DNA of 64,000 bases, from assembly GCF_041248615.1 (NCBI RefSeq), contig NZ_CP158426.1. One strand, written 5' to 3'. This DNA is from Escherichia coli (GTDB taxonomy: Bacteria > Pseudomonadota > Gammaproteobacteria > Enterobacterales > Enterobacteriaceae). Made by a program: the position numbers and the translations under genes. Of this stretch, positions 61,325 to 61,986 are shown in pieces (positions within the stretch are counted from its first letter, which is position 1; each line of letters starts with the position of its first letter). The notes under the pieces are model-generated. The model made no database searches and was not told the origin of the DNA. It was given only the letters and a program-made list of their open reading frames with translations.

Positions 61325-61615
61325 ATGTCTGCTTCTCGCTCAAAGCGGGCTAGAAGGTTAGCTTGCGTCGGACTTGGCGTATTTAAAGAAGTGCTGGTGG
61401 TGACAGGTTATTATGTTCCATTTCTACAGAACAAAATCACAGAAACTATACCCAATAGTTGTATTGAATCACTGACGAGACATCCTCATATTTATCAGGA
61501 CTGGTGTACGTCCAATACAGGAGGTTGTGGTGCTGGTTCTCAAATGTGCGCTGGCTATTGCTGCTGTAATGGCAATTTATTGCCTTGCTGTTGTTCTTAT
61601 GGATCGCCTTTCTGA
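61325..61615 (+). CDS. Hypothetical protein with Cys-rich C-terminus
   Basis: ORF only; C-terminus GGCGAGSQMCAGYCCCNGNLLPCCCSYGSPF; immediately upstream of hokD. Confidence 0.3.
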   Translation: MSASRSKRARRLACVGLGVFKEVLVVTGYYVPFLQNKITETIPNSCIESLTRHPHIYQDWCTSNTGGCGAGSQMCAGYCCCNGNLLPCCCSYGSPF

Positions 61616-61830
61616 TTGATTTTATATTGGCGAGGTGACGTGAGTTAAGTAGAATTGCTGCGGGTGCTTGAGGCTATCTGCCTCAGGCATGAACACCAAA
61701 GGCAGATAGAGAAAAGCCCCAGTTAACATTACGCGTCCTGCAAGACGCTTAACATTAATCTGAGGCTCAATCTATGAACGGCAAATCTAGGTTAGCCTCT
61801 TACGTGCCGAAAGGCAAGGAGAAGCAGGCT

Positions 61831-61986
61831 ATGAAGCAGCAAAAGGCGATGTTAATCGCCCTGATCGTCATCTGTTTAACCGTCATTGTGACGGCACTGG
61901 TAACGAGGAAAGACCTCTGCGAGGTACGAATCCGAACCGGCCAGACGGAGGTCGCTGTCTTCACAGCTTACGAACCTGAGGAGTAA
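61831..61986 (+). CDS. hokD: Hok-family membrane toxin (HokD/RelF-like)
   Basis: 51-aa product MKQQKAMLIALIVICLTVIVTALVTRKDLCEVRIRTGQTEVAVFTAYEPEE; upstream fold-back inverted repeat. Confidence 0.85.
   Translation: MKQQKAMLIALIVICLTVIVTALVTRKDLCEVRIRTGQTEVAVFTAYEPEE

Follow-up and report, generated by a model that had tools for sequence, protein, structure and literature searches.

A probable 29-codon membrane-peptide gene, overlapped by a cysteine-rich shadow reading frame, upstream of a prophage hok/mok/sok locus of Escherichia coli

Layout of the locus

The segment studied here, positions 61325 to 61986 of a 64,000-nucleotide stretch of Escherichia coli DNA (contig NZ_CP158426.1 of assembly GCF_041248615.1; the whole stretch is hereafter called the window), holds a hok toxin gene preceded by two overlapping open reading frames (ORFs). 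Features lie on the plus strand unless stated otherwise. The longer of the two ORFs runs for 96 codons from ATG to TGA (61325..61615) and ends in a dense cluster of cysteines (CCCNGNLLPCCCSYGSPF). The shorter, a small ORF of 29 codons plus stop (hereafter called the smORF; 61530..61619, GTG to TGA 61617-61619), lies in the +1 frame relative to the cysteine-rich ORF and encodes a single hydrophobic helix, MLVLKCALAIAAVMAIYCLAVVLMDRLSD; we call this peptide form A. Downstream of both is a hokD-type toxin gene of 51 codons (61831..61986, ATG 61831 to TAA 61986). An earlier reading of this DNA, made from the sequence only, had pointed to the 96-codon ORF with its terminal cysteines and to the Hok-family ORF, and both are indeed there. 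It had also proposed that the cysteine-rich ORF is either a real metal-binding or secreted peptide or a chance ORF over the hok leader.

We consider it highly probable that two adjoining small-gene units, both belonging to a lambdoid prophage, make up the segment. Unit 1 (61464-61619) would be a real gene for a 29-codon membrane peptide, and unit 2 (61627 to about 62075) an ordinary hok/mok/sok locus. The cysteine-rich ORF would be a shadow that unit 1 casts in another frame.

The smORF has the signature of a coding sequence

The predicted smORF product has 29 residues, one hydrophobic helix and a polar tail, and the mean Kyte-Doolittle score of its core is 2.3-3.0 across variants. A Shine-Dalgarno (SD) motif can be read from the sequence, AGGAGG (61519..61524), 5 nt before GTG 61530; nearly all intact homologues have AGGAGG, GGGAGG or GGAGG. 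The GTG itself is invariant in 29 of 29 haplotypes, and the codon before it varies. We rejected GTG 61527, the start picked by the program that listed the ORFs: this codon is variable (GTG, GTC, ATC, TAT, GTT, AAC) and stands 2 nt from the SD.

Evidence for selection comes from an unbiased sample, obtained with a collection scan anchored on the hok promoter, outside the smORF save for its last 7 nt. Substitutions were counted along a minimum spanning tree of the 29 haplotypes. In the smORF frame 39 of 73 changes are synonymous, against 31% expected (p=7e-5), and the variable sites are spread 22/14/37 over codon positions 1/2/3. The third frame has 23 of 73 synonymous changes against 34% expected, plus 9 changes to stop codons. 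Moreover, the replacements in the smORF are conservative (mean BLOSUM62 score +0.59 against -0.29 expected, P=0.0016), and indels, several of which occur in its leader, are absent from the smORF. Pairwise Nei-Gojobori comparison of form A with two diverged relatives described below, forms B and C, gives a synonymous divergence (dS) of 0.9-2.0 and a nonsynonymous divergence (dN) of 0.18-0.49, with a ratio (omega) of 0.15-0.30. Together, the substitution pattern and the translation signals show, as far as comparative sequence analysis reaches, that the smORF is a protein-coding gene under purifying selection. It has no match in Pfam, PHROG, NCBIfam or PADLOC, and no annotated feature corresponds to it among the RefSeq hits listed.

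Upstream of the smORF is a promoter-like footprint (61464..61492), with a -35 hexamer TTGAAT (61464-69), a 17-nt spacer and a -10 hexamer CATATT (61487-92). The consensus scan missed it because it matches the consensus at 8 of 12 positions only. We nevertheless read the hexamers as a promoter because they are conserved and the spacer between them has diverged at constant length, a pattern typical of promoters. This comparison, and others below, covers 66 distinct homologous loci drawn from IMG/VR and E. coli genomes: CATATT is present in at least 95% of them, and the spacer has fully diverged and keeps its 17 nt across lineages. The arrangement TTGAAG-17-CATATT recurs in the very diverged form D (locus L323), and the footprint is also found in E. 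coli B, where a strong terminator-like hairpin precedes it. Transcription would be expected to start at about 61499, giving a leader of roughly 30 nt. We detected no structured RNA in the leader, the smORF or the antisense strand (z = -0.69, -0.10, -0.08, +0.51), and Rfam found the hok leader only.

In E. coli B the intact smORF variant occupies positions 2545-2634 of locus L195 (NZ_CP117469.1, about 3001314-3001403), and the region around its start has one peculiarity (L195, 2528-2546). A third-frame ATG stands between the SD, which ends 4 nt before it, and the smORF GTG, which follows 2 nt after it; the 13-codon ORF beginning there (MCWFSNARWLLWL) could compete with initiation at the smORF.

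The cysteine-rich frame is not conserved

The length of the cysteine-rich ORF is unremarkable, because mononucleotide-shuffled versions of the 64-kb window yield about 16 ORFs of this size (15.6 +/- 3.3 ORFs of at least 96 codons, 7.9 with an ATG start). Its end precedes the predicted hok promoter by 12 nt, measured to the -35 hexamer, and the hok +1 (~61662) by 47 nt, which puts the ORF upstream of the hok leader, without overlap.

The sequence-only reading had suggested conservation among related prophages as a check of this frame, and conservation is what the frame lacks. Across the 66 loci the frame is open over anything between 28 and 110 codons, the first start codon (ATG, GTG or TTG) changes position, and an SD-like motif precedes it in three. 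An alignment of loci found by BLAST (n=12) has ATG 61325 in few of them, and indels of 1, 2 and 18 nt in the 5' half. In form C a TAA closes the frame further upstream and the aligned segment contains a single cysteine.

The substitutions point the same way. In the C-terminal part of the frame, where it overlaps the smORF, 14 of 73 changes are synonymous, against 31% expected. The replacements have BLOSUM62 scores like random ones, and about 20 of 59 make or remove a cysteine. The last 28 residues have 3-8 cysteines among homologues, with frequent swaps between C and Y, G, S or R. Omega for this frame is 0.8-3.3 against forms B and C in pairwise Nei-Gojobori comparison.

The ORF has no match in Pfam, PHROG, NCBIfam or PADLOC, and no annotated feature lies under the match among the RefSeq hits listed. 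Gene callers have deposited versions of it in GenBank as 'hypothetical protein' with 47, 71, 72, 78, 96 and 98 residues and differing N-termini.

The cysteines can be traced to the smORF: the cysteine codons TGC and TGT are formed where a T-ending codon precedes an Ala (GCN) or Val (GTN) codon of the smORF. Judged by these comparisons the cysteine-rich ORF is spurious, an open frame without coding constraint. It is not a gene, and it reads as unit 1 in the -1 frame together with an unconstrained upstream spacer. The second option of the sequence-only reading, a chance ORF, was thus right in spirit and wrong on two particulars, as the ORF does not lie over the hok leader and it overlaps a real 29-codon gene in another frame.

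Unit 2 is an ordinary hok/mok/sok locus

Unit 2 is a complete, already known and ordinary hok/mok/sok type I toxin-antitoxin locus, and its Pfam and Rfam matches go far beyond chance. The hok ORF matches the Pfam family HOK_GEF (PF01848) with E=3e-23 and 81.6 bits (cutoff 22), and the identical gene in a 100% identical genome is named hokD in RefSeq (WP_000813254.1). The ORF list includes a mok-type frame of 70 codons in frame with hok (61774..61986, ATG 61774 to the hok stop), which aligns column for column with the annotated mokW of phage 933W.

The 5' leader of the hok mRNA (61662..61836) contains the tac element, an inverted repeat and the mok translation start region. It matches Rfam RF01794, a model of the hok mRNA leader from +1 through the hok AUG, over the full length (model positions 1-157, 111.7 bits against a gathering score of 59, E=4e-26). 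The inverted repeat, CTATCTGCC (61674-61682) and GGCAGATAG (61701-61709), is the long inner stem of RF01794, the conserved first hairpin of the leader, so the fold-back repeat that the sequence-only reading had seen upstream of hok is part of the leader. The consensus scan predicts a hok promoter at 61627..61655 (-35 TTGGCG, 17-nt spacer, -10 TAGAAT), and this placement fits a +1 at 61662, position 1 of the Rfam model. The leader begins with tac (GGGTGCTTGAGG, 61662-61673); a complementary fbi element, CCTCAACGCACCC, can be read from the sequence at 62036..62048. Both elements are conserved in 933W and E. coli B. The role of tac/fbi pairing is established for the hok mRNA of plasmid R1.

Homology with 933W begins at 61642 and is gap-free through the sok region. 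By carrying over the sokW misc_RNA of 933W through this alignment we place a Sok antisense RNA on the minus strand at 61712..61782. A minus-strand promoter for such an RNA, which the sequence-only reading had proposed to look for, can be read from the sequence: the putative -35 hexamer TTGCCT (61817-61812), a 17-nt spacer and the putative -10 hexamer TAACCT (61794-61789) lie 7 nt upstream of the transferred Sok 5' end. The locus is canonical, and its hok gene would be expected to be controlled by mRNA folding and an antisense RNA, as that reading supposed.

The hok/mok/sok locus of R1 and the hokW/mokW/sokW locus of 933W and the Sakai prophage Sp5 share with unit 2 the Hok domain, the full-length leader, the mok frame and tac/fbi, and the Sok region of the window is ~93% identical to the annotated sokW region of 933W. 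The 933W-type hok lies near the end of the Stx (Shiga toxin) phage, whereas the hok of the window lies in the early-right (nin) region of a Qin/Rac-like prophage. Upstream of 61642 the window has the smORF and 933W has its own sequence; nothing essential differs in the hok loci themselves. Takada et al. 2021 (PMC8621323) showed hokW-sokW, a close homologue, to function as a type I system and to help phage release following induction.

The Qin prophage of K-12 (relB-relE-hokD, the last also called relF) shares the hokD toxin and the downstream order rem, ydfU/DUF968 and Q. There, however, relBE abuts hokD, 71 nt before the hok start, so that K-12 lacks the smORF as well as the greater part of the hok leader, sok included. 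Data from K-12 are therefore uninformative on the smORF.

We also asked whether the smORF is a Hok paralogue or a Sok target and rejected both ideas, as similarity and complementarity amount to chance 7-9-mers only.

A diverged family in front of hok

A profile of form-A peptides, searched against 1.84 billion representative proteins, finds forms B, C and D and a further peptide, P0074, with E values of 1e-8 to 1.4e-4 (form B, 4.5e-5 to 1.4e-4). Their sequences are MSDDISLAMEGALAV(I/V)AVVGVYCLVVFLMDRLGN (form B), MLAALKGFVAILAVVAIYCLVVVLMDRLSD (form C), MLVLVLKGALAIAAVAVIYCLVIVLMDRIFE (form D) and MLIIKGVLAIVIVVAIYCLVVTLWERLSD (P0074). All relatives with a readable contig lie directly upstream of a HOK_GEF gene and downstream of a DUF977 gene and a cargo gene. 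In the window the smORF stop codon is 43 nt before the +1 of the hok mRNA; form B stands at a constant 79 nt before it in >100 IMG/VR loci, and the position in front of hok is kept in four diverged forms with spacers of 43-79 nt. The loci that we fetched contain 270 family ORFs, 26 of them too near a contig end to judge. Among the 244 that could be evaluated, hok lies within 700 nt in 232. We looked at 11 of the remaining 12: the hok module has been replaced in nine and carries an insertion sequence in hok in two. These results show the smORF to be a member of a family in which the diverged forms have hok immediately downstream in almost every case.

The two genes can nonetheless part company. 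In the sample anchored on the hok promoter, recombination has replaced or truncated the smORF in 46 of 151 hok loci, most of which have a QueH-type gene fused up to the last seven smORF codons. As the smORF and hok are each found without the other, the two genes are separable. Moreover, loci with smORFs as far apart as a dS of ~1-2 have hok DNA that is 93-99% identical. The two genes have therefore had separate histories, and their adjacency is due to a conserved place in a mosaic genome and not to co-evolution.

Two further features were seen near hok in related loci. A second, unrelated small hydrophobic ORF of 27 residues, M(T/N)WPEAFA...(V/S)ICRW(R/G), lies directly upstream of hokW in phage 933W (L194, ~495-578) and, with an AGGAGG SD, upstream of the form-B smORF in another locus (L201, ~2771-2854). 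Taken with the smORF, it indicates that ORFs for small membrane peptides, from more than one family, are frequent upstream neighbours of prophage hok. In form-B loci (L201 2995-3015; L324 ~2575-2600), but not in form A, the stretch from the smORF stop to the hok promoter contains a perfect palindrome of 20 nt, GATATGGGAATTCCCATATC.

Form-A element DNA is present in 2,518 of 5,426 complete E. coli genomes, 1,640 of which carry at least 80% of the element. Form B occurs in 674 genomes, mostly of Shiga-toxin-producing strains, and is annotated as a hypothetical protein; K-12 lacks the family. A degenerate scan of 100,044 species genomes found it only in E. albertii and on two short contigs (L197, L198) of metagenome-assembled genomes (MAGs), one a Haemophilus MAG and the other a 'Candidatus Scatousia' MAG. 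The DNA of both contigs is nearly identical to smORF-hok DNA of E. coli, and both are most likely pieces of E. coli prophage that were binned wrongly. The family is confined to Escherichia.

Ribosome profiling supports translation of a smORF homologue

Form B is annotated in RefSeq as ECs_5710 (YP_009502606.1), which encodes 34 residues and lies 188 nt upstream of mok/hok in the Sakai prophage Sp6. It is also the novel gene XECs145 of E. coli O157:H7 Sakai, which has ribosome-profiling support (Huecker et al. 2017, PMC5597208). In lysogeny broth its transcriptome and translatome values are 79.1 and 346.1 reads per kilobase per million (RPKM), with a ribosome coverage value of 4.35 and a coverage of 0.99. 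The corresponding values in brain heart infusion (BHI) are 121.3 RPKM, 150.1 RPKM, 1.14 and 0.84, and under BHI stress 73.3 RPKM, 1.1 RPKM, 0.01 and 0.37 (PMC5597208).

ECs_5710/XECs145 resembles the smORF of the window in its transmembrane core, its tail motif (V/I)YCL(V/A)V.LMDRL(S/G)(D/N) and its place directly upstream of mok/hok in a lambdoid prophage. The two differ in several respects. ECs_5710 starts with ATG and has an acidic N-terminus (MSDDISLAMEG...), whereas form A has 29 residues and a GTG start. ECs_5710 has no promoter footprint of its own and a 79-nt spacer with the palindrome, whereas form A has its own promoter-like footprint. Finally, ECs_5710 is annotated in RefSeq, and form A has no annotated feature among the RefSeq hits listed.

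The consensus scan saw no terminator between the smORF and hok in the window, so that read-through of the smORF transcript into hok is likely.

Discussion

The reading that we hold to be highly probable combines a real membrane-peptide gene, an ordinary hok/mok/sok locus and a cysteine-rich shadow. In it, unit 1 would be a self-contained small gene, with a sigma-70-like promoter footprint, a leader of ~30 nt, an AGGAGG SD and a GTG start. Most likely the smORF product is a small protein of the inner membrane, expressed in the lysogen. It would be made there, insert into the inner membrane and act as an accessory small membrane protein of the 'moron' type, with a job independent of hok. Its transcript probably runs on into hok, and the 96-codon cysteine-rich ORF would not be expressed as such.

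Several points weigh against this reading. An independent membrane moron is the default interpretation of such a gene, and its function is wholly inferred. The evidence of translation comes from form B only, not from form A of the window, and the form-B reads may multi-map, as form-B genomes have a median of two copies. The promoter in front of the smORF owes its identification to conservation alone, given its match at 8 of 12 positions. The counts along a minimum spanning tree ignore recombination, and divergence is limited because the family is confined to Escherichia. Lastly, the smORF is dispensable, as the 46 loci without an intact copy testify.

Among the alternatives, that of a real metal-binding, secreted or bacteriocin-like cysteine peptide can draw on an ATG-initiated frame of 96 codons in the window, on the proteins that gene callers have deposited in GenBank genomes, and on the C-terminal 28 codons, which are open in most form-A homologues. 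Those deposited proteins, however, disagree on where they begin and range from 47 to 98 residues. The frame has no SD and no conserved start, is broken by frameshifting indels, is depleted in synonymous changes, and gains and loses cysteines freely; in form C it is closed by a TAA and has no cysteine cluster. It also lacks a family match and an annotated feature among the RefSeq hits listed. With its start codon and cysteine pattern unconserved and its substitutions to all appearance unconstrained, we regard this peptide, the first option of the sequence-only reading, as already largely refuted and its existence as scarcely credible. A different doubt concerns coding in either frame: what is conserved upstream of hok could be a regulatory region or an RNA that codes for no protein, and the 29-codon ORF could be fortuitous. 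The element is short and found in one genus, no annotated feature covers it among the RefSeq hits listed, and part of its conservation could serve the hok promoter. Such a region would not explain a substitution pattern that is specific to one frame, a start codon and SD that are invariant or nearly so, a peptide similarity that persists where the DNA has a dS >1, or ribosome footprints on a homologue, form B. The smORF element has, moreover, no Rfam match and no folding signal, and we consider a non-coding element very improbable.

If the smORF is coding, it could still be bound up with toxicity. It might be the toxin of a second type I system, repressed by an antisense RNA from a doubtful promoter-like site on the minus strand (TTAACT-18-TAAAAT, 61619..61648, read from 61648 to 61619) that the consensus scan returned; an RNA from there would be antisense to the smORF. 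Its product has the size and shape of a type I toxin, with one hydrophobic helix and a short polar tail, as in Ldr, TisB, ShoB, Ibs, DinQ and ZorO (<35 residues), and it adjoins another type I system. Yet it has no sequence similarity to these six, to Hok, to the hok leader or to Pfam toxin families, and it differs from the six also in having no structured long leader and no demonstrated antisense RNA. The minus-strand -10 varies (T/C) among form-A loci, no -10 follows TTAACT in the spacers of form B or 933W, and neither strand folds unusually relative to shuffles (sense z=-0.69, antisense z=-0.10). Form B is efficiently translated in growing lysogens (ribosome coverage value 4.35), unlike a tightly silenced toxin and set apart in this from chromosomal type I toxins. 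The toxin reading is weak, and we think it improbable. Alternatively, the smORF may be functionally coupled to hok, either as a modulator of Hok or an immunity factor at the membrane or as the first cistron of a smORF-mok-hok transcript, in which case its translation would affect hok mRNA folding or expression on induction. The position kept before hok in four diverged forms at 43-79 nt, the presence of hok within 700 nt of 232 of 244 evaluable copies and the lack of a detected terminator between the two genes all agree with coupling. But 46 of 151 loci, and 933W, have hok without the smORF, and the nine loci with a replaced hok module have the smORF without hok. Near-identical hok DNA (93-99%) accompanies smORFs that differ by a dS of ~1-2, with no sign of co-evolution, and a conserved gene order is normal in mosaic lambdoid genomes. 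We judge coupling of some kind unlikely. That the smORF is a working partner of hok, a peptide that tempers or times the action of Hok or a translated first cistron of the read-through transcript, would be a little less likely again.

The pair of ORFs singled out by the sequence-only reading is ordinary, being a known hok locus and a spurious ORF. The smORF is an unannotated member of an uncharacterised, partly documented small-protein family. Full-text literature searches found no mention of the form-A peptide; a preprint on the Pas small RNA and the Pro-SMP paper were set aside as irrelevant. The locus illustrates neatly how Ala and Val codons, when abundant in a hydrophobic smORF, give rise to a cysteine-rich shadow ORF in the -1 frame. 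Gene callers sometimes replace this smORF with a longer, out-of-frame 'hypothetical protein'. A modestly useful by-product is that form A is now linked to an annotated, ribosome-profiled homologue of O157. If the adjacency of smORF and hok is functional, it adds a component to a classic toxin-antitoxin system. Were the smORF a partner of hok, prophage hok loci would in many cases consist of three parts, and toxin control or phage release would involve a widespread E. coli gene whose 29-codon form RefSeq annotation lacks.

Prophage setting and neighbouring features

The 1.6 kb around the ORF pair are 100% identical to several E. coli chromosomes, in which the locus lies within a Qin/Rac-like lambdoid prophage, in the early-right (nin) region. 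The order on the left is immunity region and replication genes, DUF977 gene and a variable cargo gene, which in the window encodes an FRG-domain protein on the minus strand. To the right of it come ~320 bp without annotation, hokD, a gene for a 130-residue lipoprotein, DUF968, and then RusA, Q, tRNAs and lysis genes.

Homology between prophages resumes sharply at 61328, and the sequence leftward of this point differs from locus to locus. A hairpin marks this left mosaic boundary of the conserved element (GTCYGCTT / loop CTCGCTCA / AAGCGGRC, 61328..61351, assigned to no strand). It has a stem of 8 bp, of which 6-8 pairs are retained among loci, and its right arm is invariant. The compared loci have no compensatory changes, strand preference or following T-run.

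Across prophages the cargo slot holds FRG, SIR2, AAA ATPase, DUF4209, acetyltransferase, QueH or HigBA genes. The FRG-domain protein of the window, 444 residues long (59702-61036, minus strand), is a hit to PDC-S15, a defence candidate in PADLOC (E=7e-99). In Qin/Rac-like prophages the interval from the DUF977 gene to the smORF/hok pair has the look of a variable hotspot for defence or cargo genes.

On the other side of hokD, the 130-residue protein (62130-62522, plus strand) is a predicted lipoprotein whose signal peptide ends in LGGC and which belongs to PHROG 16082. Its N-terminus alone is weakly Cor-like, and it sits where most related prophages have rem after hokD.

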